Of a stretch of DNA of 64,000 bases, positions 9,786 to 60,906 are shown one piece after another. Origin of the DNA: Spirochaetia bacterium. Its GTDB lineage: Bacteria; Spirochaetota; Spirochaetia; WTKD01; G963693115. The notes below the pieces were generated by a model, which was given only the letters and a program-made list of their open reading frames with translations, had not been told where the DNA came from and did no database searches. The stretch spans positions 258,251 to 322,250 of the forward strand of contig CBDDCA010000006.1 of assembly GCA_965226055.1 (NCBI GenBank), in the 5' to 3' direction. The position numbers were made by a program, and so were the translations under genes. Numbering within the stretch: position 1 is the first letter of the stretch; every line of letters starts with the position of its first letter.

Positions 9786-9820
9786 CACGAGTTCAAGTAT
9801 TAAATGTGACAAAGGAGCAA
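9786..9820 (+). repeat. solo copy of the IS30-family left inverted repeat (copy A, diverged)
   Basis: cacgagttcaagtattaaatgtgacaaaggagcaa compares with the IRL of the intact element at 54784, cacgagttcaaggattaaatgcgacaaaggagcaa. No transposase gene is adjacent. Confidence 0.75.
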
Positions 9821-9930
9821 AAAAAGCGAAAATATAAAAAATACTGAATGTATCTCTTGCCTTTATTTCTTGAATTTGTAGCAGCTATCTTTTCTGTATA
9901 ACTGTGAGTAAGGTATTTTATAAGTGGCAA

Positions 9931-10604: not shown

Positions 10605-13600
10605 CTAGCGACAATTCCCCGCTGGAAGACACCATCCAGGCAAGTTTTTTACAGCTGTACCCTTAAACATATCTGTTTTTATCACACTGTTTGCTACATT
10701 CCAGTTACTCAAATTCTGATTAAAAACACTAGCATCAGCAAACATACTGCTCATATCGGTAACATTACTTACATTCCAATTCCCTATATCTTGATTAAAA
10801 ACATCAGCATCATAAAACATATACCTCATATTGGCAACATTACTTACATTCCAATTCCCTATATCCTGATTAAAAGCTTCAGCATCATAAAACATACTGT
10901 TCATATTGGTAACTTTACCTACATTCCATTTTGATATATCTCCATTGAAAAATTCTGTTTGATTAAACATATTGCTCATATCGGTAACTTTACTTACATT
11001 CCATAACGATACATCTCCATTAAAGTATTGTTTATCATAAAATAGCCCTCCCATGTCTGTTATGTTACTTGTATCTATCATGTTTAAGTTAGGGGCAAAT
11101 CCTTGTGCTTTTATCTCTGCTTCTATGGCTTCCTCTAACTTTTTTTTGTTTTGAGGAGTGTACTTGTATTCTATCGTAACTGATATTGTTTTTGATCTAC
11201 TGGCATCAGTATATGTATGTATTGCTTTCCCATCGCTCTTTTTACTGGTAAACTCTATAGTATAGGTCTTTGAAGCTGCTTTGGTAGGAGTACCTGATAT
11301 CTTCCCAGTATCAGCATCAAAGCTCAACCCTGTATCTGCTGTTATATCCGGACTTATACTAAAAATTCCTGCTATAGCGGGTGTTTTAGTAAGTGTTACT
11401 TCTTTATCTTTCGTTAATGGTACTCCTACATATGCCTTTACACTACCTCCTATACTAGCTCTACTTGCACTTATATTAAAATACCATGTAGGGAGTATTA
11501 CTACAGCTGTATGCTCAAACATATTTGTTTTACTCACAGTTTTATCCACATTCCATGTTTCAAGTTCTTTATTAAATACACTTGCTCCCTTAAACATATT
11601 GCTCATATCGGTAACTTTACTGACATTCCACCCTGTTATATCTTGATTAAACTTACTTGCATTAATAAACATACTACGCATATCGGTAACTTTACTGACA
11701 TTCCACCCTGTTATATCTTGATTAAACTCACTTGCCTTAAAAAACATACTGCTCATATTGGTAACGCTACTGACATTCCATCTTGATATATTTCCATTAA
11801 AATTAACTTCACTGGAAAATAGACTACTCATATCTTTTATTTTACTTGTATCTATCATAGTGAGATCGGGGGTATTTCCTTGTACAGTTATCTCTGTATT
11901 TATAGCCTGCTGTAATTCTGCTTTATTATTAGGAATATGCTTATACTCTTTAATAGTAACTAACACTTTTATAGTCCGCCTATCATCAATATATTTATGT
12001 ATGAGTGTTTTATCAGCCTCTTCACTTCTAAACTGTATGGTATACTCAGTCTGTGAAGTTACTGTGGTGGGAGTACCTGATATTATGCCAGTACTAGTAT
12101 CAAAGTTCAACCCTGTATTTGTTGTTATATTTGGACTTATACTAAAACTCCCTGTTATAACGGGCGTTTTGGTAAGTATTATTTTTTGACTGTCTAGGAG
12201 TGATAAATCTCTATAGACACTTATAGTAGTACTATTTGCACTTATACTAAAATACCATGTAGGCAACTTTTTTACTGCTGAAGCAAGAAACATATCTGTT
12301 TTTGTCACACCGCTATCTACATTCCAACTTTCAAGATCTTGGTTAAATGCATTTGCGTTATTAAACATAAAAAACATATTCGTAACACTACTGACATTCC
12401 AATTTGATATATCCCCATTAAATTTTTGTGCTCCTGCAAATATACTGCTCATATTGGTAACTTTACTTACATCCCATTTCGATACATTTCCATTAAAATG
12501 ATCTTTACTGGAAAATATATTACTCATATCTGTTATAGCACTCGTATCTATTATGTTTAGATTAGCGGTATTTCCTTGTGCATTTATCTCATCATCTACA
12601 GCCTTCTGTAATTCTGTTTTATCACTGGGCGTATACTTATACTGACTTATAGTTACATGTATCTCTATTGTCCGATCAGTATATGTATGTATTGTTTTCC
12701 CATTCTTTTCACTGGTAAACTGTATAGTATACTTAGTTTGTGAAGCTAATATAGTGGGAGTACCCGATATTGAGCCAGTGTTAGTATCAAAGTTCAACCC
12801 TGTATTTGTTGTTATATTTGGACTTATACTAAAACTCCCTGTTACATTAGACGTTTTAGTGAGTGTTATTGTTTCAGTGTTACTTAGCGATAAATCTTTG
12901 TATCCAGTTATAGTAGTTCTGTTTGCATTTATACTAAAATACCATGTAGGCAACTTCTTTACTACTGTACTTTCAAACATATTTGTTTTTATTACACTGC
13001 TTTTTACATTCCAGTTTTCCAGATTTGCACTAAACTTTGATGCAAAATTGAACATAGTTTCCATATTTGTAACTTTACTTACAGTCCAATTTTTTATATC
13101 TTGGTTAAAGCTTTGTGCAGATAGAAACATAGCTCTCATATTTATAACTTTACTTACAGTCCAATTTTTTATATCTTGGTTAAAGGCATGTGCTCCAGCA
13201 AATAAACTCTCCATATTTGTAACAGCACTTACATTCCATCCTGATATATCTCCATTAAATTTATTCGCATTCAAAAACATATTGCTCATATTTGTAACTT
13301 TACTTACATTCCATTTTGATATATCTCCATTGAAATTAGCTTTATCCTCAAATAGATTACTCATATCTGTTATAACACTTGTGTCTATTATGTTGAGATT
13401 AGCAGTATCTCCTTGTGCAGCTATCTCATCATCTACAGCTTTCTGTAACTCTGTTTTATTACTAGGAGTATGCTTATAACTTGTGGTAACTGATATTTTT
13501 ATTGTTCTATCAGTATATTTATGTGTCGCTGGATTACCTTTACTATCAGTAAAGCTACTGGTAAACTCTATAGTATAATCAGTCTTTGAAGCTGCTTTAG

Positions 13601-16600
13601 TAGGAGTTCCTGATATTGTGCCAGTGCTAGTATTAAAATCTAACCCTGTATTTACTGTTATATCTGGACTTATACTAAAACTTCCTGTTATATCAGGCGT
13701 TTTGGTAAAAGTTATTTCTTTATTTTTTGCAAGTGGAACATTTACATATGTATTTATACTACGATTACTTGCACTTATATTAAAATACCATGTAGGCAAC
13801 TTTGCTACTGCGGTATTCTTAAACATATCTGTTTTTGTCACACCACTTGCTACATTCCAGCTTTCAAGATCTTTTTCAAATGCATTTGCTCCACTGAGCA
13901 TACTACTCATATTGGTGACAGCATTTACATCCCATTCGGATATATCTCCATTGAAAGTAATATTATCCTTAAATAGATCACTCATATCTGTTATTTTACT
14001 TGTATCTATTATGTTGAGATTAGCTTCGTTTCCTTGTACATTTATCTCTGTAGTTATAGCTTGCTTTAATTCTGTTTTATTATTAGGAGTATGCTTATAC
14101 CTACGTATCTCTACCGATATTTTTATTGTCCTATCAGTATCAATATATTTATGTATTACTGTTCCATCTGTCTTTTTACTTGTAAACTGTATGGTATATT
14201 CAGTCTTTGAGATTGCTGTAAGAGGAGTACCCGATATTTTACCAGTGCTAGGATCAAAATCTAAACCTGTATTTTTTGCTATATCTGGACTAACGCTAAA
14301 ACTTCCTGTTATATTAGGTGTTTTGGTAAGGGTTATTTCTTTATCTGTTGCTAATGGTATGTTTTTATATGCAATTATCTTATTATCACTTGCACTTATG
14401 CTAAAATACCATGTAGGCAACTTTGCTACTGCGGTATTCTTAAATATATCTGTTTTTGTCACAGTCCCATCGCTTGCTACATTCCAATCTTCCAGATCTT
14501 GGTTAAATTTTGTCGCTCCCAAGAACATCTTGCCTATATCGGTAACGCTACTTATATTCCAGCTTGATATATCTTGATTAAACGCTGCCGCTGACGAAAA
14601 CATCTGATGCATATTCGTAACTTTTCCTACCTTCCAATTTGATATATCTTTATTAAAAATGGTTGCTCCCGAAAACATAGCTGTCATATTTGTAACTTTT
14701 CTTACATCCCAGCCCGACATATTGCTATTAAAATTTGCTGCTCCTAAAAACATTCGATTCATATCCGTAACTGCCCCTACATTCCACCCCGATATATCTT
14801 TATTGAAACTGGTTGCTCCCGAAAACATATTCCCCATATCATTCACATTTTGTACCTTCCAATTTGATATATCTTGATTAAAACTTGTCGCATTCCAAAA
14901 CATACCATTCATGTTAGTAACACTTTGTACCTTCCAGTTTGATATATCTTGATTAAAACTACCTGCATAATAAAACATACTGCTCATATCAATAACATTA
15001 CTTACATTCCAACCAGAAATATCCCCATTAAATGCAGCAGCTTGATTAAACATATGACTCATATCAGTAACATTACTTACATCCCACTCAGATATTTTAC
15101 CATTAAAAGTAGTATTACTATTAAATAATCCACTCATATCATCAATCTTACTAGTATCAATTATATTTAAGTCAGCAGTATTTCCTTGTAATCCTATCTC
15201 AGTATTTATATTGTTTATTAATTCTAATTTACCAGTAGGAGTATACTTATGCCCTATAGTAACTGTTATCGTTATTGTCCTATCAGTATAGGCATATATT
15301 GTTTTCCCATTCTTTTCACTGGTAAACTGTATGGTGTAAGGAGTTTTTGAAGCTACCTTTGTAGGAGTACCCGATATTGTCCCAGAGCTAGAATCAAAAC
15401 TCAAGCCTGTATTTGTTGTGATACTTGGACTTATACTAAAACTTCCTGCTATACTAGGTGTTTTGGTAACTTTTATTTCTTCACTTGCTCCTAATTTTAT
15501 ACGTGCTTGCCCTGTCAGAGCAGACTTATTTGCACTTATACTAAAATACCATGTAGGTAACTTTGCTACTGCGGTATTCTTAAACATATCTGTTTTTGTC
15601 ACAGTCCCATCGCTTGCCACCTTCCAGCTTTCAAGATCTTTGTCAAATGCACTTGCTCCTAAAAACATGCTACTCATATCAGCAACCTTGCTTACATTCC
15701 ATCCCGATACATTTTGATTGAAACTTGTTGCTCCTGAAAACATATTACTCATATCGGTAACGCTACTTACATCCCATCCCGATATATCTCCATTGAAATT
15801 AGCTTTATTCTCAAATATATTACTCATATCTGTTATATTACTTGTATTTATTATGTTTAAGTTAGCAGTATTTCCTTGTACTTCTATCTCCTTTTTTATG
15901 TTTTCCAATAACTCTGTTTTGTTGTTAGGAGTATAAAGATAAGTATTTATTGCTACTGATAGAGTGATGGATCTAGTATCGACATAAGTATATGTCGCTG
16001 GATTACCTGAGCTATCAGTAAAGCTACTGGTAAACTGTATGGTGTAAGAAGTTTGTGAAGCTGCCTCGGTAGGAGTACCCGATATTGTGCCAGTTCTAGT
16101 ATCAAAATCTAACCCTGTATTTGCTTTGATATCTGGACTTATACTGAAACTTCCTGCTATAAGGGGTGTCCTTGTCAGTATTATATCTGTTATTGGTACT
16201 TTTACTCCCTCATGTATACTATTGCTGCTTGCGCTTATACTAAAATACCATGTAGGTAATTTTGCTACTGCAGTATTCGTAAACATATTTGTTTTTGTCT
16301 TAAGGCTTGCTATATTCCAGTTTTCAATATCTCCATTAAATTTTATCGCCCCACTCAACATATTTTCCATATCAGTGACTTTACTTACATTCCACTCGGA
16401 TATATTTCCATTGAAAGTAGTGTTATCCTTAAATAGATCACTCATATCTGTTATGTTACTTGTATCTATTATGTTGAGATTAGCAGTATTTCCTTGTGCA
16501 TTTATCTCTGTAGTTATAGCTTGCTTTAATTCTGCTATATTATTGGGAGTATGCTTATATTTATGTATCTCTACTGATATTGTTATTGTTCTATCAGTAT

Positions 16601-19073
16601 AGGTATGTGTTGCTAAAGCACCTGTACTACCAGTAAAGCTACTGGTAAACTGTATGGTGTAAGAAGTTTGTGAAACTGCTTTGGTAGGAGTGCCTGATAT
16701 TGTCCCAGTGCTAGTATTAAAACTCAACCCTGTATTTGCTGTTATATCTGGACTAATACTAAAATTTCCTGCTATATCAGGCGTTTTGCTAAGGGTTATT
16801 TCTTCATTTTTTGCTAGCGGTATTCCTCTATATACATCTATACTAGCACTATTTGACTTTATGCTAAAATACCATGTAGGTAATTTTGCTACTGCGGTAT
16901 TCTTAAATATATCTGTTTTTGTCACAGCGATTGCTACATTCCAGCCTTCAAGATCTTGTGTAAACTTAGAAGCACCAGAAAACATGCTACTCATATTGGT
17001 AACCTTGCTTACATTCCATCCCGACACATTTTGATTGAAACTTGTTGCTCCTAAAAACATACTGCTCATATCGGCAACTTTACTTACATTCCATCCCGAT
17101 ACATTTTGATTGAAACTTGTTGCTCCTAAAAACATACTGCTCATATCGGTAACTTTACTTACATTCCATTTCGATATGTCTCCATTAAAACTTGTTGCTC
17201 CTGAAAACATACTGCTCATATCGGTAACTTTACTTACATTCCATTTCGATATATCTCCATTGAAAGTAGTGTTATCCTTAAATAGCCTACTCATATCTGT
17301 TATAAGACTCGTATTTATTATGTTTAGATTAGCAGTATTTCCTTGCAATCCTACCTCTGTTTTTATAGCTTCCAATAATTCTGCTTTATTTTTTGGCTTA
17401 TACTCTATAGTGAGCAATATTTCTATTGTCCTATCAGTATCAGTATAGGTATGTATTTCTGTCCTATCAGAGGAGGTACTTGTAAATGTTATAATATACT
17501 CAGTCTCTGAGGCTACCTTTGTAGGAGTACCTGATATTGTGCCAGTACTAGTATCAAAACTCAACCCTATACTCGTTATATCTGGCTTTATACCAAATTT
17601 TCCTGTTATATCAGGCGTTTTGCTAAGAGTTATTTTTTCATTATCTGCTAGTGATACCCCTTTATATACAGTGAGCTCATCAACATTAGCACTTATGCTA
17701 AAATACCATGTAGGCAATTTTGCTACTGCGGTATTTGTAAACATATCTTTTTTTGTCACAGTGCTTGCTACATTCCAGCCTTCAAGATCTTTATCAAATG
17801 CACTTGCTCCTGAAAACATACCATCCATATCTGTAATATTACTTACCTTCCACTTTGATATGTCTCCATTGAAACTTGTTGCTCCTGCAAACATATTACT
17901 CATATCGGTAACATTGCTTACATCCCACAATGATATATCTCTATTAAAGGTAGTGTCATCCTTAAATAGATCATGCATATCTTTTACAGCACTTGTATTT
18001 ATATAGTTAAAATTATCTACATCAGTATTTTTAATTGCTTCTATTAATTCGTTACGTGTTTTTACTATAGCAGTAAACACCGATACATATATAGAGAACT
18101 GGCTAGACTTTCCTAAGTAACTTCCATCCCCTGTAAAACGAATTGTATATTTTCTTCGTATACCATTTTCTTTATCCTTCAATAACCTTATTGCAGTGCC
18201 ATATATTTCTCCATTATTGTCCTTCATCTCCAATCCTGTATCTTCCGTAAGAGTTGTCGTTTTTCCATCAGTACTATTAAATTCAATACTCCATGTACCA
18301 GTAATTCCTGGAGGGCTTGTTGCAATATTGATTGGCATTAAAGGAACATTCAAGCTCGACTTGATTAACTGTTCATTATCATACCTATCTGTGATAGAGT
18401 TTCCATCACGCACAAGAGTAAATACATAATGCCAACTAGGAATACTTGTTGCAGGTACATTAGCTCCCTTAAATATATCTTGTATATTTACTGAATCTGC
18501 TACCTGCCATTTCTCTAAATCATACTGAAACACTGTTGCTTTATTAAACATGTTACTCATATCGGTAACCTTGCTCACATTCCAGCCTGATATATCTTGA
18601 TTAAAACTTGCTGCGGCTTCAAACATGTTACTCATATCGGTAACCTTGCTCACATTCCAGCCTGATATATTTTGATTAAAACTCGTTGCTCCCTTAAACA
18701 GATTACTCATATTAGTAACATTACTTACATTCCAGCCTGATATATTTCCATTAAAGGTAGTATTTCCTTCAAACATACTGCTCATATCAGTAATATTGCT
18801 TACATCCCAACTTGATATATCACCTGAAAAATTGGAAAATTCACCATCACCTTTGAATAAGCCGCTTATATCTTTTACTTTACTTGTATCTATAGTAGAG
18901 AGATCTGCTGCATTTCCGCGGGAGGCAATTTCTCGCTTAATGTTTTCAATAAGCGATTCTCTACTATCAGGAGAGTAAATAAAGTCTAAACTTAAAGATT
19001 TTTCTGGATCACAACCAGATACCAAAAAAGCGAAACATAAAAATAGCCAAAATATAAAAAATTGATACTTCAT
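10605..19073 (-). CDS. giant modular surface lipoprotein: 11 modules of DUF285/BspA LRR blocks, most followed by a putative-Ig (He_PIG-like) domain
   Basis: 2822-aa uninterrupted ORF. The lipobox is FLVSGCDP. There are eleven module starts of the type GNTANLNIIDTS.ITDMS.LF. Each is followed by 3-11 copies of the 23-aa unit F(N)xDIS.WNVS.VT.M..MF..A..F, then AVAKLPTWYFSISA and GLSFDTSTGTISGTPT. The last module ends with LPGWCLPAGNCR. Confidence 0.9.
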   Translation of the reverse strand: MKYQFFIFWLFLCFAFLVSGCDPEKSLSLDFIYSPDSRESLIENIKREIASRGNAADLSTIDTSKVKDISGLFKGDGEFSNFSGDISSWDVSNITDMSSMFEGNTTFNGNISGWNVSNVTNMSNLFKGATSFNQNISGWNVSKVTDMSNMFEAAASFNQDISGWNVSKVTDMSNMFNKATVFQYDLEKWQVADSVNIQDIFKGANVPATSIPSWHYVFTLVRDGNSITDRYDNEQLIKSSLNVPLMPINIATSPPGITGTWSIEFNSTDGKTTTLTEDTGLEMKDNNGEIYGTAIRLLKDKENGIRRKYTIRFTGDGSYLGKSSQFSIYVSVFTAIVKTRNELIEAIKNTDVDNFNYINTSAVKDMHDLFKDDTTFNRDISLWDVSNVTDMSNMFAGATSFNGDISKWKVSNITDMDGMFSGASAFDKDLEGWNVASTVTKKDMFTNTAVAKLPTWYFSISANVDELTVYKGVSLADNEKITLSKTPDITGKFGIKPDITSIGLSFDTSTGTISGTPTKVASETEYIITFTSTSSDRTEIHTYTDTDRTIEILLTIEYKPKNKAELLEAIKTEVGLQGNTANLNIINTSLITDMSRLFKDNTTFNGDISKWNVSKVTDMSSMFSGATSFNGDISKWNVSKVTDMSSMFLGATSFNQNVSGWNVSKVADMSSMFLGATSFNQNVSGWNVSKVTNMSSMFSGASKFTQDLEGWNVAIAVTKTDIFKNTAVAKLPTWYFSIKSNSASIDVYRGIPLAKNEEITLSKTPDIAGNFSISPDITANTGLSFNTSTGTISGTPTKAVSQTSYTIQFTSSFTGSTGALATHTYTDRTITISVEIHKYKHTPNNIAELKQAITTEINAQGNTANLNIIDTSNITDMSDLFKDNTTFNGNISEWNVSKVTDMENMLSGAIKFNGDIENWNIASLKTKTNMFTNTAVAKLPTWYFSISASSNSIHEGVKVPITDIILTRTPLIAGSFSISPDIKANTGLDFDTRTGTISGTPTEAASQTSYTIQFTSSFTDSSGNPATYTYVDTRSITLSVAINTYLYTPNNKTELLENIKKEIEVQGNTANLNIINTSNITDMSNIFENKANFNGDISGWDVSSVTDMSNMFSGATSFNQNVSGWNVSKVADMSSMFLGASAFDKDLESWKVASDGTVTKTDMFKNTAVAKLPTWYFSISANKSALTGQARIKLGASEEIKVTKTPSIAGSFSISPSITTNTGLSFDSSSGTISGTPTKVASKTPYTIQFTSEKNGKTIYAYTDRTITITVTIGHKYTPTGKLELINNINTEIGLQGNTADLNIIDTSKIDDMSGLFNSNTTFNGKISEWDVSNVTDMSHMFNQAAAFNGDISGWNVSNVIDMSSMFYYAGSFNQDISNWKVQSVTNMNGMFWNATSFNQDISNWKVQNVNDMGNMFSGATSFNKDISGWNVGAVTDMNRMFLGAANFNSNMSGWDVRKVTNMTAMFSGATIFNKDISNWKVGKVTNMHQMFSSAAAFNQDISSWNISSVTDIGKMFLGATKFNQDLEDWNVASDGTVTKTDIFKNTAVAKLPTWYFSISASDNKIIAYKNIPLATDKEITLTKTPNITGSFSVSPDIAKNTGLDFDPSTGKISGTPLTAISKTEYTIQFTSKKTDGTVIHKYIDTDRTIKISVEIRRYKHTPNNKTELKQAITTEINVQGNEANLNIIDTSKITDMSDLFKDNITFNGDISEWDVNAVTNMSSMLSGANAFEKDLESWNVASGVTKTDMFKNTAVAKLPTWYFNISASNRSINTYVNVPLAKNKEITFTKTPDITGSFSISPDITVNTGLDFNTSTGTISGTPTKAASKTDYTIEFTSSFTDSKGNPATHKYTDRTIKISVTTSYKHTPSNKTELQKAVDDEIAAQGDTANLNIIDTSVITDMSNLFEDKANFNGDISKWNVSKVTNMSNMFLNANKFNGDISGWNVSAVTNMESLFAGAHAFNQDIKNWTVSKVINMRAMFLSAQSFNQDIKNWTVSKVTNMETMFNFASKFSANLENWNVKSSVIKTNMFESTVVKKLPTWYFSINANRTTITGYKDLSLSNTETITLTKTSNVTGSFSISPNITTNTGLNFDTNTGSISGTPTILASQTKYTIQFTSEKNGKTIHTYTDRTIEIHVTISQYKYTPSDKTELQKAVDDEINAQGNTANLNIIDTSAITDMSNIFSSKDHFNGNVSKWDVSKVTNMSSIFAGAQKFNGDISNWNVSSVTNMFFMFNNANAFNQDLESWNVDSGVTKTDMFLASAVKKLPTWYFSISANSTTISVYRDLSLLDSQKIILTKTPVITGSFSISPNITTNTGLNFDTSTGIISGTPTTVTSQTEYTIQFRSEEADKTLIHKYIDDRRTIKVLVTIKEYKHIPNNKAELQQAINTEITVQGNTPDLTMIDTSKIKDMSSLFSSEVNFNGNISRWNVSSVTNMSSMFFKASEFNQDITGWNVSKVTDMRSMFINASKFNQDITGWNVSKVTDMSNMFKGASVFNKELETWNVDKTVSKTNMFEHTAVVILPTWYFNISASRASIGGSVKAYVGVPLTKDKEVTLTKTPAIAGIFSISPDITADTGLSFDADTGKISGTPTKAASKTYTIEFTSKKSDGKAIHTYTDASRSKTISVTIEYKYTPQNKKKLEEAIEAEIKAQGFAPNLNMIDTSNITDMGGLFYDKQYFNGDVSLWNVSKVTDMSNMFNQTEFFNGDISKWNVGKVTNMNSMFYDAEAFNQDIGNWNVSNVANMRYMFYDADVFNQDIGNWNVSNVTDMSSMFADASVFNQNLSNWNVANSVIKTDMFKGTAVKNLPGWCLPAGNCR

Positions 19074-42087: not shown

Positions 42088-43044
42088 TCATATTGGTATC
42101 TTAATCCATGCTTGAGGCACATCTGTATCATTGATACTGTATCCTTCTTTTTCTTTAGAACTAATATACGGTAAAATTACTATCTTATCTTTATTTGTAT
42201 TAAGCCATGCTCCCCACCAACTAAATGTACTACTTGCAATTATTTGATGCTTACATTTACTTAGCAAATATAAATCTTCATGTCCTTTTGAAAGTGAATT
42301 TCCGTCCATAATAGTAAAGGATATATGAGAGAAACGATGAGCTTGCCTTTTAACCCATGCAGGATCATCACTAAAGAAAAAATAATGTGGATGCTGTAAT
42401 TTTTTCTGCATAATATGTATTGCAGCAAGATAATAATCTATACCTACCAAATTGCCTATAGTAACAACATCTGTCCTACGAATATGAACTCCCACTGATT
42501 GCTTTTTACTCAATATGATGTTTTCGTATTTTAAAGAATAGCTGCCAAGTGGATTACGAAGGGTACATTGCTGAAGAATATCACTTCGATACTCTTCAAA
42601 AAATGTATGACATTGAAACCAACCATCAAGGTACACATTATTCCCCAGACGAAATAAAGATTGTACATACTCATCTGGATACCCATATTTAACATGATGA
42701 TTATTAAACGTTTTCAAACAATATATCTTTGTAAGATACCGTTTAAGAAATAATGCTACTTTCATAGGAACATTCATTTTCCTTATAAGAGATAATAAAG
42801 CATGCACTCTCCTATAATATTTGTAAGAAGGTATTAGTAAGCAACCATATTGAGCAATAATATTATATTCATCAAGAAAAAGAATACGAGCTTTTATACT
42901 GTTACCAGCAGAATCTTTCACAAAATAATCATAATCTAAAAAATCAAGAACAACATAGGTATTATTTTTTCTTGCTAAGGCATAGGCTGTAGCGTATTGA
43001 AATAACTGATTACCAAGTCTCCCTTGTACTTTAACAGCTATCAT
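42088..43044 (-). CDS. glycosyltransferase family 11 (alpha-1,2-fucosyltransferase-like)
   Basis: 318 aa. GRLGNQLFQYATAYALA, VGVHIRRTD and IIASSTFSWWGAWL match the FutC-type motifs GGLGNQMFQYA, HIRRGD and STYSWW. Confidence 0.85.
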   Translation of the reverse strand: MIAVKVQGRLGNQLFQYATAYALARKNNTYVVLDFLDYDYFVKDSAGNSIKARILFLDEYNIIAQYGCLLIPSYKYYRRVHALLSLIRKMNVPMKVALFLKRYLTKIYCLKTFNNHHVKYGYPDEYVQSLFRLGNNVYLDGWFQCHTFFEEYRSDILQQCTLRNPLGSYSLKYENIILSKKQSVGVHIRRTDVVTIGNLVGIDYYLAAIHIMQKKLQHPHYFFFSDDPAWVKRQAHRFSHISFTIMDGNSLSKGHEDLYLLSKCKHQIIASSTFSWWGAWLNTNKDKIVILPYISSKEKEGYSINDTDVPQAWIKIPI

Positions 43045-43990
43045 ATCTTATACCATATTTATCCCTTCCATTGAGGACGTACCCCCCCCCCCCCAATTTC
43101 CACAGCATGCCTTTTACAATATTCTTAAAAGATTGATATAACGAAGGTTTCATTTTTTTCTGTAATAATTTCTCTGGTAAAAAATATTGATGAAAATAAA
43201 ACCATACATCAAAAGGATGAGGAGGATCAATCATATGAAAATATTCGGGATATCCAATGGCAAGACGAGCATATATATTTTGTTCTACTCCAATAAATGT
43301 ACCATGAGAAGACATGTTATCCTTCAATGTATAGTAAAGATTATGTATTTTTAAGAGAATAGAGCTATGAATAAGAAATAAGCCTCCAACATGTTCTCTT
43401 GTTCGCAAGGTCAATGTAGCTATATTTTCTTTCTCCTTCGCATATTGTTGAACATCAAACCTTTGTTCTGTTTTTGTCATTACTACTTTATGGGGAGACA
43501 TAGTAGTTACTTTTTCTACATCAGGCCACTGTCTAATTTCTCTTGGTTTCAAATCGTAATCATACCTACGCTTTCTTCCTCTAAACGCTCCAATATCCAT
43601 CCACATAAACCACTGCGACCGAAACACATTTAACTCATACGCTTCTTTTACAAAATGTAATTTTTCGTTCCATATAATATACAGCTCAGGATCATGTATA
43701 TCTTTTTCTTTATTTTTTGCATGATGTTCTTGATACAATGCATAATGAGCATACTCATGAAGCTGATGAAATTCTTTTATAATAACAACAGTATTTTCTT
43801 GATACTTTTTCCTTAATCGTAAAAAATAGGGAGCATGCTCTTTATCAGTAAATATAACGAGCGGGAGTTTCATATTACAGAGAAAATTTTTTATCCACTG
43901 TTTATACATATCATCACTATGTTTTGATTTCTTAAGACGATAATATGCAGTCACTATTGTGAGACTATTCTTAACAATACTTTCCTCCAA
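43031..43990 (-). CDS. HtrL/YibB-like glycosyltransferase, tandem copy 1, with a G13 tract near the 3' end
   Basis: 319 aa. A TTG start is inferred because no in-frame ATG precedes the conserved N-terminus. TIVTAYYRLKKSKH...W..N.L......VIFTD resembles the HtrL_YibB family, from memory. The C-terminal tail after GGGG is YVLNGRDKYGIRYDSC. It overlaps the GT11 start by 14 nt. Confidence 0.7.
   Translation of the reverse strand: MEESIVKNSLTIVTAYYRLKKSKHSDDMYKQWIKNFLCNMKLPLVIFTDKEHAPYFLRLRKKYQENTVVIIKEFHQLHEYAHYALYQEHHAKNKEKDIHDPELYIIWNEKLHFVKEAYELNVFRSQWFMWMDIGAFRGRKRRYDYDLKPREIRQWPDVEKVTTMSPHKVVMTKTEQRFDVQQYAKEKENIATLTLRTREHVGGLFLIHSSILLKIHNLYYTLKDNMSSHGTFIGVEQNIYARLAIGYPEYFHMIDPPHPFDVWFYFHQYFLPEKLLQKKMKPSLYQSFKNIVKGMLWKLGGGGYVLNGRDKYGIRYDSC
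43082..43094 (-). repeat. homopolymer C13 on the plus strand (G13 in the coding strand)
   Basis: Counted directly: 9 C at 43082-43090 and 4 C at 43091-43094. Confidence 0.95.
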
Positions 43991-44047
43991 ACACTAGTAC
44001 AAGTATATCATACTAGTACTATTTTTATTTAAGTCAACAATAACGAT

Positions 44048-44082
44048 CACGAGTTCAAGGAGTAACTGCGACAAAGGAGCAA
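44048..44082 (+). repeat. solo IS30-family IRL (copy C, diverged)
   Basis: cacgagttcaaggagtaactgcgacaaaggagcaa lies exactly at the end of duplication unit 1. Confidence 0.75.
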
Positions 44083-44114
44083 AAAACATACTGTTACCTA
44101 ATTTATGTGATCTA

Positions 44115-45119
44115 TCAAAAATAAGACAAGATGCCATTAGTATACAACAAAAATTCTATTTTATAAGCAAACTCTCTTTCCTTCCTTATTATTATTCCAT
44201 TGGGGTGTACCCCCCCCCCCCCCAATTTCCACAGCATGCCTTTTACAATATTCTTAAAAGATTGATACAACGAAGGCTTTATTTTTTTCTGTAATAATTT
44301 CTCTGGTAAAAAATATTGATGAAAATAAAACCATACATCAAAAGCATGAGAAGGATCAATCATATGAAAATATTCAGGATATCCAATGGCAAGACGAGCA
44401 TATATATTTTGGTCTACTCCAATAAATGTACCATGAGAAAACATATTATCCTTCAATGTATAATAAAGATTATGTATTTTTAAGAGAATAGAGCTATGAA
44501 TAAGAAATAAGCCTCCAACATGTTCTCTTGTTCGCAAGGTCAATGTAGCTATATTTTCTTTCTCTTTCGCATATTGTTGAACATCAAACTCTTCCTCTGT
44601 TTTTATCATTACTGCTTTATGGGGAGACATAGTAGTTACTTTTTCTACATCAGGCCACTGTCTAATTTCTCTTGGTTTCAAATCGTAATCATACCTACGC
44701 TTTCTTCCTCTAAACGCTCCAATATCCATCCACATAAACCACTGCGACCGAAACACATTTAACTCATACGCTTCTTTTACAAAATGTAATTTTTCGTTCC
44801 ATATAATATACAGCTCAGGATCATGTATATCTTTTTGTATATCTTTTGCATGATGTTCTTGATACAATGCATAATGAGCATACTCATGAAGCTGATGAAA
44901 TTCTTTTATAATAACAACAGTATTTTCTTGATACTTTTTCCTTAATCGTAAAAAATAGGGAGCATGCTCTTTATCAGTAAATATAACGAGCGGGAGTTTC
45001 ATATTACAGAGAAAATTTTTTATCCACTGTTTATACATATCATCACTATGTTTTGATTTCTTAAGACGATAATATGCAGTCACTATTGTGAGACTATTCT
45101 TAGCAATACTTTCCTCCAA
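44115..45119 (-). CDS. HtrL/YibB-like glycosyltransferase, tandem copy 2, with a G14 tract near the 3' end
   Basis: 334 aa and near-identical to copy 1 up to ...WKLGGGG. After that it has a different tail, VHPNGIIIRKEREFAYKIEFLLYTNGILSYF, because of the extra G and different downstream DNA. Confidence 0.7.
   Translation of the reverse strand: MEESIAKNSLTIVTAYYRLKKSKHSDDMYKQWIKNFLCNMKLPLVIFTDKEHAPYFLRLRKKYQENTVVIIKEFHQLHEYAHYALYQEHHAKDIQKDIHDPELYIIWNEKLHFVKEAYELNVFRSQWFMWMDIGAFRGRKRRYDYDLKPREIRQWPDVEKVTTMSPHKAVMIKTEEEFDVQQYAKEKENIATLTLRTREHVGGLFLIHSSILLKIHNLYYTLKDNMFSHGTFIGVDQNIYARLAIGYPEYFHMIDPSHAFDVWFYFHQYFLPEKLLQKKIKPSLYQSFKNIVKGMLWKLGGGGVHPNGIIIRKEREFAYKIEFLLYTNGILSYF
44210..44223 (-). 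repeat. homopolymer C14 on the plus strand (G14 in the coding strand)
   Basis: Counted directly: 1 C at 44210, 10 C at 44211-44220 and 3 C at 44221-44223. Confidence 0.95.
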
Positions 45120-45183
45120 ACACTAGTACAAGTATATCATACTAGTACTATTTTTATTTAAGTCAACAATAACGATACTATAC

Positions 45184-54783: not shown

Positions 54784-55866
54784 CACGAGTTCAAGGATTA
54801 AATGCGACAAAGGAGCAAAAAAAGTAAGAAAAAATAAAAAAAGGAGACACTCTATAATTGTATAAACGAAACAAATTAGGAGGTCTCCTTTATGAGTATA
54901 CCAAAAAACTCATTTCGTCATCTGACAGAGAAAGATCGTACTATTATCGCTACGCTCCGTCATGCAAAGTACAGTGTCAATGCTATAGCCAAACGCCTCA
55001 GTGTCCATCGCAGCACTGTCTATCGTGAAATACAACGCAATGGGGGCAAACGTGTCTATAATGAAGTCATTGCTCACAGACGGGCAAGAAAACGATGGGA
55101 ACAGAGTCATACAAAACACTCTGTTCTTTCTCATACTATTCGTACCTATATCGTTTTTCACCTTATTTTCGATGGCTGGTCGCCCGAACAAATAGCAGGA
55201 AGGCTCAGTATTGATATGCCTCAGTATGCTATCAGTCATGAGACGATATATCACTTTATTTACCGTTTCGCTCCTCATTTGACACAGTATCTGCGAAAAC
55301 AGCACCAAACACGCAAAAAAAGAACCATATCTCACTCTTTTTCTGTTTCTCGTATCCCTCATCGTGTCTCAGTACACGAACGAGGCGATGTTTCTAATGA
55401 ATATGGCCACTGGGAAGTAGATCTTGTTGGCTCTTCTTCAAAAGCTACTGTGCTTGCTTTAGTGGAAAAACATACCCGTTATGTTCTTTTTCATAAGATA
55501 CCTGACAAAACTGCTCATACCGTACAGTATGGCATGCTCTTTGCTCTAAGGAACATACCACGCCATTTATGTAACAGTTTCACTTATGATAATGGGAGTG
55601 AATTTATGCTCCATACTGAAATAAATACACGCTTGAATGCTCGTTCTTATTTTTGTACTCCTTACTGTGCTTGGGAAAAAGGATTAGTCGAACATTCTAT
55701 TGGATTATTACGTCAGTACTTTCCTAAGAAGACTTTGTTTCATAGAGTCAAGCAAAGTGATATACTACAAGTACAAACGCTTATCAATCATAGACCACGA
55801 AAATGTCTTCATTTTTTGACCCCTGCTGAAGCCTTTTCTGTCGCATTTAGTCCTTGAATCCGCACT
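54784..55866 (+). mobile_element. intact IS30-family insertion sequence, about 1.08 kb
   Basis: The IRL is cacgagttcaaggattaaatgcgacaaaggagc. The reverse complement of the right end (55833-55866) is gtgcggattcaaggactaaatgcgacagaaaagg, sharing the core TTCAAGGAyTAAATGCGACA. There is a single transposase ORF inside. The exact termini are uncertain by a few nt. Confidence 0.85.
54892..55857 (+). CDS. IS30-family DDE transposase
   Basis: 321 aa. The N-terminal HTH reads LTEKDRTIIATLRHAKYSVNAIAKRLSVHRSTVYREIQRN. GHWEVDLV, TYDNGSEF and EHSIGLLRQYFPK are the D, D and E blocks typical of IS30 transposases. An RBS aggagg lies 8 nt upstream. Confidence 0.92.
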   Translation: MSIPKNSFRHLTEKDRTIIATLRHAKYSVNAIAKRLSVHRSTVYREIQRNGGKRVYNEVIAHRRARKRWEQSHTKHSVLSHTIRTYIVFHLIFDGWSPEQIAGRLSIDMPQYAISHETIYHFIYRFAPHLTQYLRKQHQTRKKRTISHSFSVSRIPHRVSVHERGDVSNEYGHWEVDLVGSSSKATVLALVEKHTRYVLFHKIPDKTAHTVQYGMLFALRNIPRHLCNSFTYDNGSEFMLHTEINTRLNARSYFCTPYCAWEKGLVEHSIGLLRQYFPKKTLFHRVKQSDILQVQTLINHRPRKCLHFLTPAEAFSVAFSP

Positions 55867-55969: not shown

Positions 55970-56137
55970 CTTTTTTATGATAGCCTAAAAAACTCTCTGT
56001 AATTGCCCATCATAGCAATACTACAAAAATTTTAATTTTTTACTATAATACTAGTGTATGATGATAACATACAATAATGAAACAAAAGGAGTATTTCTAT
56101 GAATGAAAATAGAGAGCTACAAAGTATGAAAAAAATC

Positions 56138-56152
56138 GGGGGGGGGGGGGGG
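56138..56152 (+). repeat. homopolymer G15 inside the 5' end of the surface lipoprotein gene
   Basis: Counted directly: 3 G at 56138-56140, 10 G at 56141-56150 and 2 G at 56151-56152. Confidence 0.95.
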
Positions 56153-56190
56153 TACACTCTCGATATAAGCAAAACCTAACTATACTAGTA

Positions 56191-59100
56191 GTGCTAGCAA
56201 TGACTACCCTCGTACTTGTAGGATGTGCAGAGAGTAGCAACAATTCCTCATCAGGCGGAGGGGGAAAACAGGTAACCCCGACACTCGCATCAGTGTCCAA
56301 TGTGCAGATACAAGCAGCAAGCAACGATGGGACGCTCTCGTTACGCTGGCAAGCTCCCAGCGAAGCCACGCATGTAGTAGTAAAAGCTACATCAACTGCG
56401 CCAGCACAATCTATACAGGTGCGTGTTCCTGCAATAGAATATCGTGCATTGTTTCAACAAAACAGACCCTACACCCTCAGAGGCTTGCATGCCACTACCG
56501 ATTATACAGTAGAGATAGAAGCACAAAAATCAGACTCAGAAGTATCACCAAAAACAACACGCTCTGTGACAACACTGATCGATGAAACTGCACCACAGGA
56601 CACTTTTACACGGGTAGCAGTAGAGAAAGCACAAAACGATAGTATAAAGCTAACATGGGACAAAGCACTGCTATCGTCAGGCAAGACAGACATAGCCGAA
56701 GCCACAATACAGGTGATAGAAAGAACTACTAATGTAAGGGCAGAAGTATCAGTACAAGATGTAACACAAGGAGAGGTGAGCATTGCTGTCCCCACTATAG
56801 ACGGCATAAGCTATGATATAGTAGTAGTATACAAAGATAGCAACGGTAACGAAAGCACAGCAAAGCAAGCACTCAGAGGCATAGTGCCATCAGCACTCTC
56901 ACAAACAGTAACGCCACTTTCCGCATCAGACCTTACAGTAACAGCAAACGATAAAAGCAATAGCCCAGCCGATGAAAGCCTGCTTATTATGTGGGATGAT
57001 AAAGATGACAGCTTTGACTTTTCAAACAAAAGCCTCCAAGTACGCGTTATAGCAACCGCAACAAATACAGTAGTAGCAGAGGAGACAATAGACAAAGATA
57101 CAAGTGCAACAAATGTCAGCGGAGCAAGTGCAGACAACCAAGAGTACGCCACTGTGTATGTAGCAAAAGATGGCATAGCACTCACAAAACTCTATGGCAC
57201 GCTTACCTACAAAGTAGAAGTGTATGTTTCTCAAAACGGAAAGTACTCCACTGCAGTGTCAAAAGAACAAGCAACAACAGACAAAAGCACAGAGCCTGTA
57301 AGCAATGTAAGTGCCGTAGGAGGAGCAACAAGCATAGTAGTAGGCTGGCAAGCCCCCGATGTACGAGATTATGCAGGAGTGACTATAACAGTAACAGAAA
57401 AGGACAGCACAACAGCAGCAAAGACAGTGACAATAACAGAGAGAACAGTACGCAACACACAGATAACAGACCTCAAAGCAACCACCGAGTATACAGTGGC
57501 AGTCGTATCAATGGACAGTGCAGGCAACAAAGGAACAGAAGCAACAGCCACAGTCAGCACATCAGCAGATAGCACCGCCCCCGATGCAGTAACAAGCATA
57601 CAAGCAAGCTATCCTTTTGTATCAGCAGCAAAGATAGGCACACAGATAACATGGACAGCACCCGATGCAGCAAAAGCAAAGAACAAAGACATAAAAGAAT
57701 ACAGCGTAAGCATAGCAGAAAAAGGCACAAGCACCACAGTACTGAGCGAGAAGAAAATACCCTATCCCACAAAGTCACTCTCTGTAGAAGAACTTGTGCA
57801 AGGCAAAACATATACCATAACAATACTCACGCTTGATTACTCAGAAAACAAAAGTAGCCAAGCCACAAAAGACATAACAACCCCCAACTCACTCACAGCT
57901 CCCTCAGAAGATCTCTTTCAAAGCAAGCCTACCCTTGACAAAACAGGAGCTATACAGATAAAAGCAACTTTTAAGAATGCTCCAAGCATAGGACGATACT
58001 ACACCTTGCGTATGAAAGAGGGAGCTACCTTAATAGCAGAAAAAAGCATAACAAACACAGCAATCACCATTAGCTTTGGGATAGCAGATGGCTTAGAAGT
58101 ACCTAAGAGCCAAGCAAATGCCAAGAATTATCGCTTTGATTTTCTGCAAATAGCAAATAACAGAGTAAGTCCAGTAACCGCACTGAGTGATGCAGTAGCA
58201 GTATACGATAGCACCTCGACAGCACCGCCCGCTCCCAAAGATGCAAAGCTCTCCGTAGAGTCAGTAACCCAAACAACTGCAAAAGCAGTCTATACATTTA
58301 GTGCAGGAGACATTACTGATACCAACAAAGCACCCAGCGGAAGCAAACTCACACAGGCACAAATACAATACAAAGTATACATAGCAGCAGGAGACCACAG
58401 CACAAAAACACTAGACGAAATAAAAGCCCTTGCAGGAGTACAAACAAGAGAGCTAGCAGGAAACAGCACTCCATTAAAAGCAACATTTATAGGAACGAAA
58501 GGAGCAGACTATACCGCAGGGGTAGAAGCAATAAACAGCCTCAATCCATCATATAGTACAGGAGCATCAGTAACAATAAAGAAAGCAACACTTACTGCTC
58601 CCCCAAGCACACCAAAAGTAACAACCTACACTAACAGTAATGCAGTGGTATTTGCAGTGCCTACCACAGGAAGTAACAGCGGGAAAAAAGTCATAACAGT
58701 ACAACTCAATGCCTCAGACATAGCAGGAGTGAGCAAGGCAAATGGCAATGCCCTTGAAGCGACAGACCTTGCCTACTATGTGCTATACCTCAAGAAAGAA
58801 GATAGCACAGGAAAGCCTGCCAGCGTATCAGCACTATGGGCAACAGAAAAGAGCAGTACAAGAGTGGCAAAATACACAAAAGCAACAGGAACAACTCAAG
58901 ACACAATATCCATAGCAATAGTAGACAGCACCAGTGGAAGCAATGCAGGAGCCACACCCATAGAAACAGCAAAAGACTACTACATAGGAGTAAGGATAGT
59001 CAACACAACATCCCCCAATTACGATGCAACAAATAGCGACAAGCTCTTTCCTGCAGGCTTTTACACCGATGTAACAGAAATAAAGGAAATCTATACTTCC

Positions 59101-60906
59101 AAAGCAGTAGCACCCAGCCAGTCATTACTCACAGGAAAGCTGGTAGTATCACAGTCAACAAATACTACAGGCACAATAAAGCTGGTACTTACCGAGCTAA
59201 ATACATTTACAGGAGCAAAAGACTACGATGGCACAAACATAACAGCAAATGACAAGCTAGTATACACAGTGTATGGCTTACAGAAAGACACCACTCCTAC
59301 AGTAGCAGAAGTACTTGCAGGCAGAAAAGTAAACCTAGGCAGTGCAAGTAGCGGAGTGTACACAGTACCAGCTCTTGCCAGTTTAGGCTTATCTTCAGAC
59401 ACAGCACCAGTAGTAGCAATAAAAGGAGCGACAAAGTATTACTTTGTGGTAGAGGTAGCAATAAAAACAGACCCTAGCAAGAAAGTAGCATCCTCAACAG
59501 TAGCAAGCGTAACAACCGCATCGCAGGCGACCGCCCCCGCAGAAGTAAGCAGTATACAGACAAGAGTAGCCCAGACAGGCATGAGAGTATCGTGGACAGC
59601 CCCCAGCCTCAGTGCAAGCCACAAAGCAAATACAGGCGATGCCCTAACAGTAGCACAAGTATCGTACAAGGTATACAAAGTAGCTAAGGGAGGCAGTGCA
59701 AAAAGTGTAGCAGCAATAAAACAAGCAGACTCAAGTCCTACAACAGTAGCAGCAGGAACAACAAACACTACCCTGACAGGATTGACAAACGGAACGACCT
59801 ACGAAATAGTAGTGCAAGCAGTAAACAGCACCGATGATACAAAAGCATCCACTGGACTACGCCACGAGTTTGAAGCAAGAGGAATAGCTATAGGAAACAC
59901 TAGCATAGTCTCAGCAGAAGTAGGCAAAACGCCAGCAATAAATATTACAAGAGTACTTACCAGTAACTCTGCCTTTACCTGTGATGCAAACATACTAGAG
60001 GCAGATGCAAAGAAGATAAAACAAGAAACAGGGCTAGCAGTATCGTTTGATCAGAGTAGCAAAACAGTTACTATAACAGGCATAGCAAATAAGTCTAATA
60101 TACGAGATACAGCCATTACTGAGTATAACTATGCTGTAGCACAGTGTACAATAACCGCTTCAAAGAAAAAAGTGCCAGCCACCATCGTGATACAGACAGA
60201 GCTAAGAACAGCACCATCAGGAAAAGCAGAAGCCTATTACAGACCAACAACAAAGGCACAGCTTCAAACTATTATCAGTGAAGAAAAGACAAGGCAAGGT
60301 TCAGGAGGAAACAGTAACCCTAGCCCCAACCTCAACATGATAGACACCAGTGCTATTACTGATATGAGCCAATTATTTCAGAATGATACTACTTTTAATG
60401 GAGATCTAACACAGTGGAATACCAGTAATGTAACGAGAATGAATGGTATGTTTACTGATGCAAGTGTTTTTAATCAAAATATAGGAGATTGGGATACAGG
60501 AGAAGTTATACATATAGGTAGTATGTTTTTTAGAGCAAGTGTTTTTAATCAAAATATAGGAAGCTGGAATATAAGTAAAGTTAAAAATATTGATAGTATG
60601 TTTGCTAGTGCCAGTGCTTTTAATCAAGACATAGGAAATTGGGACACAAGCAATGTTATTAATATGAGTACTACATTTTTGAGTGCAAGTGCCTTTAATC
60701 AAGACATAGGAAACTGGAATGTAAAGAATGTCGATTCTATAACTGGTATGTTTAACGGAGCTTCTACATTTGATCAAGATTTATCATCATGGATATTGTG
60801 TAAAGCAAGTCTCACTTTTTTGGAGTTCGAAAATTCGGCTATGGATGGAAAAACAGCAAAGTACCCGACAGTAAAGCGTCAAAGTGATCCAGCATGTACA
60901 TCGTAA
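56191..60906 (+). CDS. large surface lipoprotein with multiple FN3-like domains and a C-terminal DUF285/BspA LRR block; the 5' end is out of frame with its probable true start at 56099
   Basis: 1571-aa ORF as listed (GTG start). The lipobox is TLVLVGCAES. Numerous FN3-like units are present, for example VSNVSAVGGATSIVVGWQAPD...TEYTVAVVSMDSAGN. One unit at 59518..59877 is homologous to the 1791..4043 repeats. The C-terminus reads NLNMIDTSAITDMSQLF followed by six 23-aa DUF285 units. The upstream ATG 56099 with RBS aaaggag is separated from this frame by the G15 tract. Confidence 0.85.
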   Translation: MLAMTTLVLVGCAESSNNSSSGGGGKQVTPTLASVSNVQIQAASNDGTLSLRWQAPSEATHVVVKATSTAPAQSIQVRVPAIEYRALFQQNRPYTLRGLHATTDYTVEIEAQKSDSEVSPKTTRSVTTLIDETAPQDTFTRVAVEKAQNDSIKLTWDKALLSSGKTDIAEATIQVIERTTNVRAEVSVQDVTQGEVSIAVPTIDGISYDIVVVYKDSNGNESTAKQALRGIVPSALSQTVTPLSASDLTVTANDKSNSPADESLLIMWDDKDDSFDFSNKSLQVRVIATATNTVVAEETIDKDTSATNVSGASADNQEYATVYVAKDGIALTKLYGTLTYKVEVYVSQNGKYSTAVSKEQATTDKSTEPVSNVSAVGGATSIVVGWQAPDVRDYAGVTITVTEKDSTTAAKTVTITERTVRNTQITDLKATTEYTVAVVSMDSAGNKGTEATATVSTSADSTAPDAVTSIQASYPFVSAAKIGTQITWTAPDAAKAKNKDIKEYSVSIAEKGTSTTVLSEKKIPYPTKSLSVEELVQGKTYTITILTLDYSENKSSQATKDITTPNSLTAPSEDLFQSKPTLDKTGAIQIKATFKNAPSIGRYYTLRMKEGATLIAEKSITNTAITISFGIADGLEVPKSQANAKNYRFDFLQIANNRVSPVTALSDAVAVYDSTSTAPPAPKDAKLSVESVTQTTAKAVYTFSAGDITDTNKAPSGSKLTQAQIQYKVYIAAGDHSTKTLDEIKALAGVQTRELAGNSTPLKATFIGTKGADYTAGVEAINSLNPSYSTGASVTIKKATLTAPPSTPKVTTYTNSNAVVFAVPTTGSNSGKKVITVQLNASDIAGVSKANGNALEATDLAYYVLYLKKEDSTGKPASVSALWATEKSSTRVAKYTKATGTTQDTISIAIVDSTSGSNAGATPIETAKDYYIGVRIVNTTSPNYDATNSDKLFPAGFYTDVTEIKEIYTSKAVAPSQSLLTGKLVVSQSTNTTGTIKLVLTELNTFTGAKDYDGTNITANDKLVYTVYGLQKDTTPTVAEVLAGRKVNLGSASSGVYTVPALASLGLSSDTAPVVAIKGATKYYFVVEVAIKTDPSKKVASSTVASVTTASQATAPAEVSSIQTRVAQTGMRVSWTAPSLSASHKANTGDALTVAQVSYKVYKVAKGGSAKSVAAIKQADSSPTTVAAGTTNTTLTGLTNGTTYEIVVQAVNSTDDTKASTGLRHEFEARGIAIGNTSIVSAEVGKTPAINITRVLTSNSAFTCDANILEADAKKIKQETGLAVSFDQSSKTVTITGIANKSNIRDTAITEYNYAVAQCTITASKKKVPATIVIQTELRTAPSGKAEAYYRPTTKAQLQTIISEEKTRQGSGGNSNPSPNLNMIDTSAITDMSQLFQNDTTFNGDLTQWNTSNVTRMNGMFTDASVFNQNIGDWDTGEVIHIGSMFFRASVFNQNIGSWNISKVKNIDSMFASASAFNQDIGNWDTSNVINMSTTFLSASAFNQDIGNWNVKNVDSITGMFNGASTFDQDLSSWILCKASLTFLEFENSAMDGKTAKYPTVKRQSDPACTS

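Follow-up and report, generated by a model that had tools for sequence, protein, structure and literature searches.

Poly-G tracts at the 3' ends of two HtrL-like glycosyltransferase genes in an uncultured Spirochaetia bacterium: an IS30-associated duplication with candidate C-terminal phase variation

Do long guanine tracts in a gene for glycan synthesis necessarily switch that gene on and off? The question is raised by a 64,000-nucleotide stretch of an uncultured Spirochaetia metagenome-assembled genome (MAG; assembly GCA_965226055.1, contig CBDDCA010000006.1, positions 258,251 to 322,250 of the forward strand), hereafter the window, in whose coordinates all positions are given unless another sequence is named. 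Here two near-identical genes encoding HtrL-like glycosyltransferases, each with a poly-G tract close to its 3' end, lie in tandem upstream of a fucosyltransferase gene of family GT11. We propose, with a probability of about 0.6, that the locus is a glycan operon with a recently formed tract and a duplication linked to an insertion sequence (IS) of the IS30 family, and that the tracts would provide C-terminal phase variation rather than on/off switching. The genes and tracts concerned are:

42088..43044, minus strand: GT11 alpha-1,2-fucosyltransferase-family gene, with HIRRTD motif
43031..43990, minus strand: HtrL_YibB-family GT-A glycosyltransferase gene copy 1, 319 aa at G13, adjoining GT11
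44115..45119, minus strand: HtrL_YibB-family GT-A glycosyltransferase gene copy 2, 334 aa at G14, with the ancestral upstream flank and stop cluster kept
43082..43094, minus strand: G13 tract (C13 on the plus strand), codons 300–303 of copy 1, 37 nt upstream of the GT11 ATG
44210..44223, minus strand: G14 tract (C14 on the plus strand), at the homologous position in copy 2

The coordinates given for the two tracts in a preliminary description of the window hold. Runs of at least nine G or C occur exactly three times in these 64 kb (34.7% G+C), with lengths of 13, 14 and 15, while the next longest run has six; the distribution of run lengths is bimodal, with three runs of 13–15 and none of 7–12, and the number of G9 matches expected from shuffled sequence is 0.01. 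Both the G13 and the G14 tract lie inside open reading frames (ORFs) and are long simple-sequence repeats within coding sequence, 16–31 codons ahead of the present stops and 6–9 codons ahead of the ancestral stop.

Where the tract falls in the protein is central to any interpretation. Both copies match the Pfam family HtrL_YibB (PF09612; 30.4 and 28.8 bits, threshold 24.1), the match covering positions 2–262 of the 267 in the profile at residues 9–263. This family is associated with lipo-oligosaccharide and lipopolysaccharide loci (PMC4172580). Escherichia coli HtrL/YibB, encoded in the waa cluster, is alike in that it too lies above the Pfam gathering threshold; however, the NCBIfam equivalog model for YibB (TIGR02192) gives 44.9 bits, far below its cut-off of 264.9, and the genes described here are therefore not orthologues of the E. 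coli gene. They differ from it also in an extra basic amphipathic C-terminal helix, which is confined to close relatives. The glycosyltransferase assignment made in the preliminary description is supported at the level of fold: an AlphaFold (AF2) model of copy 1 (pLDDT 86, pTM 0.84) predicts a Rossmann-like GT-A fold, and the invariant residues W130, D132 and G134 (WMDIG) are a candidate metal- or nucleotide-binding motif. Most members of the family are 255–280 aa long and end near residue 270 of these proteins. The extension beyond that point (LPEKLLQKK...GMLWKL) is present only in the nearest relatives (P0002 and P0003) and stops right where the tract is. Residues 270–299 carry a net charge of +6 and include the last helix of the model (residues 284–299), which is amphipathic (hydrophobic moment 10th of 304 sixteen-residue windows) and might act as a peripheral membrane anchor, while residues 300–319 are modelled as disordered (pLDDT about 36). 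The tract follows both the GT-A catalytic domain and this terminal helix.

We resized the tracts in silico from G9 to G18 and computed the resulting products and stops, which for the lengths nearest to those observed are:

G13: copy 1, 319 aa, stop codon 43031-33, a 14-nt overlap with GT11; copy 2, 308 aa, with an ancestral-like end, YTPME and stop (also at G16)
G14: copy 1, 310 aa, stop codon 43059-61, 14 nt short of the GT11 ATG; copy 2, 334 aa
G12/G15: copy 1, 313/314 aa, stop codon 43048-50, in frame with GT11 and 3 nt short of its ATG; copy 2, 318/319 aa

All lengths from G9 to G18 give products of 308–335 aa. The frames differ only in a tail of 7–31 residues (11–35 including the glycine run), which is disordered in the model of copy 1 and probably so in the other frames; the tails of copy 1 are YVLNGRDKYGIRYDSC, VRPQWKG and (G)TSSMEGINMV, and those of copy 2 are VHPNG...SYF, YTPME and (G)TPQWNNNKEGKRVCL. 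Since the tract begins only at codon 300, a frameshift there neither truncates nor abolishes the enzyme; it lies in the last part of the reading frame, and each frame specifies a protein that differs only in C-terminal sequence and length. Such C-terminal phase variation has been proposed for G11–G14 tracts at the 3' ends of coding sequences, including surface-glycan genes, in Helicobacter canadensis (Snyder et al. 2010; PMC2823697), and the likeness extends to the 3'-terminal position of the poly-G, the three nearly full-length frames and the tails of a few to tens of residues. The present case differs in its host, an uncultured Spirochaetia MAG, in the duplication of the tract together with its gene, and in that the copy 1 tract also sets the stop relative to an overlapping fucosyltransferase start; moreover, length variation was seen at the level of reads in H. 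canadensis (PMC2823697), whereas the tract lengths given here are those of one assembly. Slippage of the tracts would thus yield C-terminal phase variation and not on/off switching, and its functional effect would probably be small, through tail-dependent stability or membrane association, or through a modest change in re-initiation at GT11.

The origin of the tract can be followed by comparison with a single-copy relative. P0002, the nearest homologue from another genome (84% amino-acid identity), is encoded on a 2.36-Mb chromosome, OZ244590.1 ('MAG: Spirochaetia bacterium'), where the locus is syntenic, with approximately 95% nucleotide identity over 15 kb, in the gene order ABC transporter, DUF4340, HtrL, GT11, 2-oxoacid dehydrogenase E2 and E1. 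There is one HtrL gene in that genome, with no IS30 end and no homopolymer: the site of the tract reads AAA TTG GAG GGA GAG ACG CCC TCA ATG GAA TAA TAA TAA, followed after 12 nt by the GT11 ATG, and the protein ends in KLEGETPSME before three stops. A G or C run of at least seven was found at none of the related HtrL loci. As the 95%-identical single-copy relative has no homopolymer at this site, the tract is a recent expansion, and the HtrL tract is young; from the alignment it appears to have expanded in situ from GGAGGGAGAGA by three A-to-G changes, one G-to-T change and the addition of four G's. The relative provides an unusually clear view of a tract before and after its birth from a purine-rich run, within about 5% genome divergence. 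Two further features of the comparison are:

44185..44194, minus strand: triple-stop cluster TAATAATAAG of the single-copy ancestral gene, still present, read in frame at G13/G16 but not at G14
43045..43065, minus strand: rewritten 21-nt spacer from the shared AATGGAA to the GT11 ATG, GGGATAAATATGGTATAAGAT in place of the ancestral TAATAATAAGTAGAGAAAGAT, with stops for the G14 and G12/G15 frames

Compared with the ancestral frame, the two present-day copies are both shifted by +1. Ancestral sequence extends in copy 2 as far as 44185, and at G13 or G16 this copy would end in ...KLGGGGYTPME and stop, near to the ...KLEGETPSME and stop of the relative.

The second event at the locus is the duplication itself, for which the relevant features are:

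43066..44047, minus strand: duplicated unit 1, 982 nt, comprising the promoter-like site and the entire gene with its tract, plus 16 nt beyond that tract
44195..45177, minus strand: duplicated unit 2, 983 nt, aligned with unit 1 at offset 1129
44010..44037, minus strand: promoter-like TTGACT-N16-TAGTAT upstream of copy 1, within the duplicated unit
45139..45166, minus strand: identical promoter-like site upstream of copy 2
44048..44090, plus strand: solo IS30-family left inverted repeat with about 13 nt of IS interior, its outer tip abutting the first base of unit 1
44091..44184, no strand assigned: junction filler, translated at G14 as the junk tail of copy 2
~54784..55865, plus strand: complete IS30-family element, the reference for the inverted repeat at 44048; transposase at 54892..55857

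That a tandem duplication has taken place, as first described, is clear: the copies are 97% identical in nucleotides (21 substitutions in 894 coding nt, the 57-nt upstream region being identical), the two units align without gaps at an offset of 1129, and an IS30 end lies exactly at the junction. The units had been said to begin exactly at the homopolymer, which is not the case, since ungapped homology between the copies begins at 43066/44195, 16 nt beyond the tract, with AATGGAA common to both; the tract is therefore not the boundary of the duplication. The C-terminal tails of both proteins are as previously given, and of the two causes offered for their divergence, the downstream DNA stands while the one-nucleotide difference in tract length does not account for anything past a shared Asn-Gly. 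G13 plus TACGTCCTC (9 nt) and G14 plus TACACCCC (8 nt) have equal total length before AATGGA, so that both copies are in the same frame at this Asn-Gly; up to it the tails (YVL versus VHP) differ by tract length and by substitutions after the tract, and past it they differ through the different DNA beyond AATGGAA. Overall the preliminary description is largely accurate, with a misplaced boundary and an over-read mechanism.

The solo left inverted repeat reported between the copies was confirmed, the 30-mer at 44048 matching the left end of the complete IS30-family element at 28 of 30 positions (it also aligns with the right end of that element, whose transposase scores 236 bits on NF033563, the NCBIfam model 'IS30 family transposase', cut-off 80). 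Homology to the IS stops after about 43 nt, and neither a right end nor a transposase was found in 44091-44194. The location of the IS30 tip exactly at the junction points to a join made by transposase. An IS30 terminal repeat placed in this way is what is seen in IS-associated duplications that leave a solo inverted repeat as a scar, and a complete IS30 copy and three more solo left ends are present in the same 64 kb; the differences are that only approximately 43 nt of IS remain and that IS sequence is absent from the other junction. Compared with the single-copy genome, the insertion amounts to ~1135 nt (~43050-44184) within the 12-nt spacer between HtrL and GT11, and consists, in the direction of transcription, of 94 nt of filler, 43 nt of IS30 left end, the 982-nt promoter-plus-gene unit and about 16 nt of filler; copy 1 is probably the inserted copy. 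An extension of the duplication into the 5' end of GT11, suggested by a blastn high-scoring segment pair reaching window position 44154, was rejected, as nothing significant lies past TAATAATAAG and 188 of 500 shuffles reached the same score.

We propose that the purine run GGAGGGAGAGA was first altered by the three A-to-G changes and the G-to-T change at its 3' edge and then expanded by slippage to G13–14, that a block of about 1.1 kb carrying the same tract would next have been inserted into the 12-nt HtrL-GT11 spacer, and that the body of the IS would have been lost afterwards. Sister-chromatid transposition, mobilisation of adjacent DNA and later deletion are candidate mechanisms for the insertion.

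The third of the long runs indicates that poly-G switching is used elsewhere in this lineage:

56138..56152, plus strand: third tract, G15, codons 14–18 of a 1.57-kaa fn3/DUF285 lipoprotein gene (gene 56100..60906)

The gene starts ATG AAA AAA ATC G15 TAC..., and its signal peptide with LVGC lipobox (...LVLVGC) is in frame only at 3n+1 G's. Fifteen is not such a number, and the gene is therefore OFF in this window. In OZ244590.1 the orthologue is likewise out of frame, with G15 (L049 2930-2944); that of a third relative (P0046) is in frame and encodes MNDSYKSKELYSVKKIGGGGGVHSQYKQNL...LILVGC. The lipoprotein G15 is a classical on/off contingency tract conserved in the lineage. In the relative a T14 run lies about 100 nt upstream of the start of the gene (L049 2749-2762), with none at the same place in the window, and may be a second, transcriptional variable tract. 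Acquisition of the HtrL tract from the lipoprotein gene, with which it shares GnTACAC, was considered and rejected, since the 'AC' was already present in the ancestor and the T arose by one substitution.

In Treponema pallidum the poly-G tracts (tprE/G/J, tprL and TP0126 promoters) lie upstream of promoters and act on transcription. The present genome is similar to T. pallidum in being of a spirochaete lineage with poly-G length as the variable element, but the HtrL tract lies inside coding sequence with no promoter-like site downstream. To our knowledge, poly-G contingency loci have been documented among spirochaetes mainly in T. pallidum. The HtrL tracts and the lipoprotein tract together suggest that surface components of an uncultured Spirochaetia lineage are subject to poly-G contingency loci and, if the HtrL tracts slip, they would extend C-terminal phase variation in glycan genes to a spirochaete.

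Runs of at least 13 guanines are intrinsically slippage-prone in every bacterium examined, and it is this general behaviour, along with the G13/G14 difference between the paralogues, that supports variation in tract length; we infer from it that the tracts slip during replication. Several observations weigh against C-terminal phase variation by a recently formed and duplicated tract. The sole hint of a change in length is the difference between the paralogues, which could reflect an erroneous consensus in a long-read metagenome assembly. The closest relative has no tract, and there is therefore no sign of long-term maintenance by selection. The order in which tract formation precedes duplication rests on the tract and the G-to-T change being common to both copies, a pattern that gene conversion would give as well, and for the 94-nt junction filler no significant match was found in the window, the relative or any fetched locus. 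Both copies are now in the longest-tail frame, which bypasses the ancestral stop and could be favoured, but this has a chance of about 1 in 9 and is not significant. Exact-protein look-ups with copy 1, copy 2 and GT11 returned no positioned contig, a scan of genome contigs for further strains or assemblies returned OZ244590.1 alone, and a scan of metagenome contigs (JGI) returned 45 loci, all at 38% identity or below, none with a G9 run and none from a close strain.

It is possible, although in our judgement unlikely, that the tracts are non-functional and perhaps invariant, being neutral expansions at gene ends in which the G13/G14 difference, or the exact lengths, reflect errors in homopolymer consensus. 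The names of related contigs (ctg26443_14x_c and ctg143019_6.49x_l) read, unconfirmed, as 6–14x long-read metagenome assemblies, and if this reading is right the low coverage makes homopolymer errors of +/-1 plausible; the lack of a tract in the 95%-identical relative and the mildness of the predicted consequences fit this reading too. However, the runs occupy homologous sites of two diverged copies and are followed by different bases (TACGTCCTC versus TACACCCC), so that the runs themselves are real, and both the established proneness of such runs to slippage and the bimodal lengths, which are typical of contingency tracts, speak against this reading.

A more doubtful proposition is that the copy 1 tract forms a phase-variable coupling switch, in which translation of GT11 would depend on ribosomes ending copy 1 and fucosylation would be graded or toggled. 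The GT11 product scores 89.2 bits on Pfam PF01531 (threshold 23.9; residues 1–298), has the HxRRxD motif as HIRRTD from residue 187 and is 95% identical in amino acids to that of the relative. GT11 has no promoter-like site of its own and is probably co-transcribed with copy 1; its ATG lies 11 nt upstream of the copy 1 stop codon at G13, and the locus is organised as a small putative glycan-synthesis operon in which the HtrL-like GT-A transferase precedes the GT11 fucosyltransferase. HtrL and GT11 domains are fused in both orders elsewhere (P0029, 579 aa; P0035, 532 aa), which supports a functional partnership and is one of the points in favour of coupling. As the preliminary description had stated, the frame after the copy 1 tract decides where translation terminates relative to GT11: on resizing, the stop precedes the first base of its ATG by 14 or 3 nt, or follows it by 11 nt. 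Also consistent with coupling are the lack of a promoter-like site from the tract to GT11, the weakness of the best pairing to the anti-Shine-Dalgarno (anti-SD) sequence upstream of GT11 (some 17 nt off), and the rewriting of the 21-nt spacer in this lineage, which gave every frame a stop. In the ancestral frame, moreover, HtrL and GT11 form one reading frame, split only by stops (in the relative, L001 8793-8822: TAA TAA TAA GTA GAG AAA GAT ATG); in copy 1 at G12/G15 the corresponding sequence is TAA GAT ATG (window 43045-43050).

Against this, the stop lies near the ATG in all frames (14 or 3 nt before it, or in a 14-nt overlap), a range that termination-reinitiation normally tolerates, so that neither a large difference between frames nor a strong coupling effect is predicted. 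A recognisable SD is also missing from about half of the window's likely genes, and the missing SD was accordingly rejected as proof of obligatory coupling. In a more distant relative (L050) HtrL and GT11 do not adjoin each other, and a requirement for coupling is therefore not conserved; the tract of copy 2 has no downstream gene to couple. The tract may have some effect on translational coupling of GT11. Two variants of the idea were considered and rejected: transcriptional control in the style of T. pallidum, as there is no consensus promoter between the tract and GT11, and an HtrL-GT11 fusion by frameshift, as every frame meets a stop before the GT11 frame opens.

Still less probable is a combinatorial elaboration, in which a newborn contingency locus would tune fucosylation of a surface glycan stochastically, by shifting the HtrL stop about the start of GT11, while the second tract independently switched the tail of the paralogue, making a 3 x 3 device for glycan variation. 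Finally, it is very improbable that the tracts are classical on/off contingency switches of the HtrL-like genes like those of lgt, futA/B/C and wlaN: long G-tracts are located in glycan genes here, another gene of the lineage has an on/off G-tract and gonococcal lgt provides a precedent for poly-G switching, but the tract starts at codon 300 of some 308–334, past the Pfam domain, the usual end of homologues and the last predicted helix, and as the catalytic domain is truncated in no frame, lgt- or fut-style switching is ruled out. In Neisseria lgtA/C/D, Helicobacter pylori futA/B/C and Campylobacter jejuni wlaN/cgtA the position of the tract is 5' or central within the gene, and frameshifts there cut the enzyme short. 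The present locus is similar to these in its G or C runs in glycan genes and in containing a GT11 fucosyltransferase, but its tract comes after the complete catalytic domain, and GT11 has no tract of its own; the likeness to the on/off tracts of Helicobacter, Neisseria and Campylobacter drawn in the preliminary description is not supported, every frame giving a full-length enzyme with a different short tail.

Within our proposal of a glycan operon with C-terminal phase variation, the duplication is probably more consequential than the tracts. Amino-acid identity to the relative is 94–96% for neighbouring genes and about 84% for HtrL, and in nucleotides the flanks and the 5' half of HtrL are 94–99% identical while the 3' half is 76–93% identical; this divergence hot spot comprises window 43095-43600 and 44224-44730 against L001 8286-8816. 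Most of the differences between copy 1 and copy 2 likewise lie in the 3' half. The copies differ at 13 residues, with a dN/dS of 0.45 (14 non-synonymous and 7 synonymous changes). If the C-terminal half is the acceptor side, as we assume, this pattern would mean that the acceptor-side half of the enzyme is diversifying; the 13 residue differences and a C-terminal half that diverges much faster than the flanking genes suggest two transferases of slightly different specificity. In the more distant relative (L050 1-8900, ENA ERZ25073789 ctg143019) the island upstream of the E1 dehydrogenase gene is laid out differently, with a single HtrL gene, two GT11 genes in tandem and a GDP-sugar epimerase/dehydratase gene in convergent orientation. 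The gene duplicated in that lineage (GT11) is not the one duplicated here (HtrL). From these comparisons the site appears to be a variable glycan island, and the locus is most aptly classed as a GT-A glycan gene duplicated in association with IS30, with candidate C-terminal phase-variation tracts in its copies.

There are two lessons for annotation. The two HtrL-like genes should not be labelled pseudogenes or frameshifted, and gene callers, which chose an ATG further downstream, cut away conserved sequence at their N-terminus. Only a TTG start, which has no SD upstream (43974-43990 and 45103-45119), retains the conserved N-terminal strand TIVTAYY; the public gene calls P0001, P0038 and P0002, which begin at the later ATG, are short of 39 conserved residues. 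Codons 1–3 of the TTG-started ORFs contain a perfect GGAGG, and a leader ORF is possible.

Several minor observations concern the surroundings of the locus. A search of 41.5–46.5 kb against Rfam gave no known RNA element at E values up to 0.1. Synteny with the relative (L001 1-1597) stops just past the ABC transporter operon (window beyond 49.8 kb), after which the relative has a Cas12f1/TnpB-like gene and a DUF4468 gene, and the window has five other genes and then the IS30 region. The three additional solo IS30 left ends are at 9786-9824, 26867-26909 and 54284-54333; one and the same module of approximately 430 nt with a small ORF (MSVQ[V/A]KTDTKETTLILNNTDKENLERCFSEWKFKDYQSLMRFVSSILIESEDKITIGIKKSGVLKEFSPADHL...) comes after the left end at 26867 and after that at 54284, and the complete IS30 at 54784 is inserted directly after one such module. 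These modules may represent a passenger element bounded by IS30 ends, or IS30 targeting its own ends. The window also contains a very large ORF of 2822 aa (10605..19073, minus strand).

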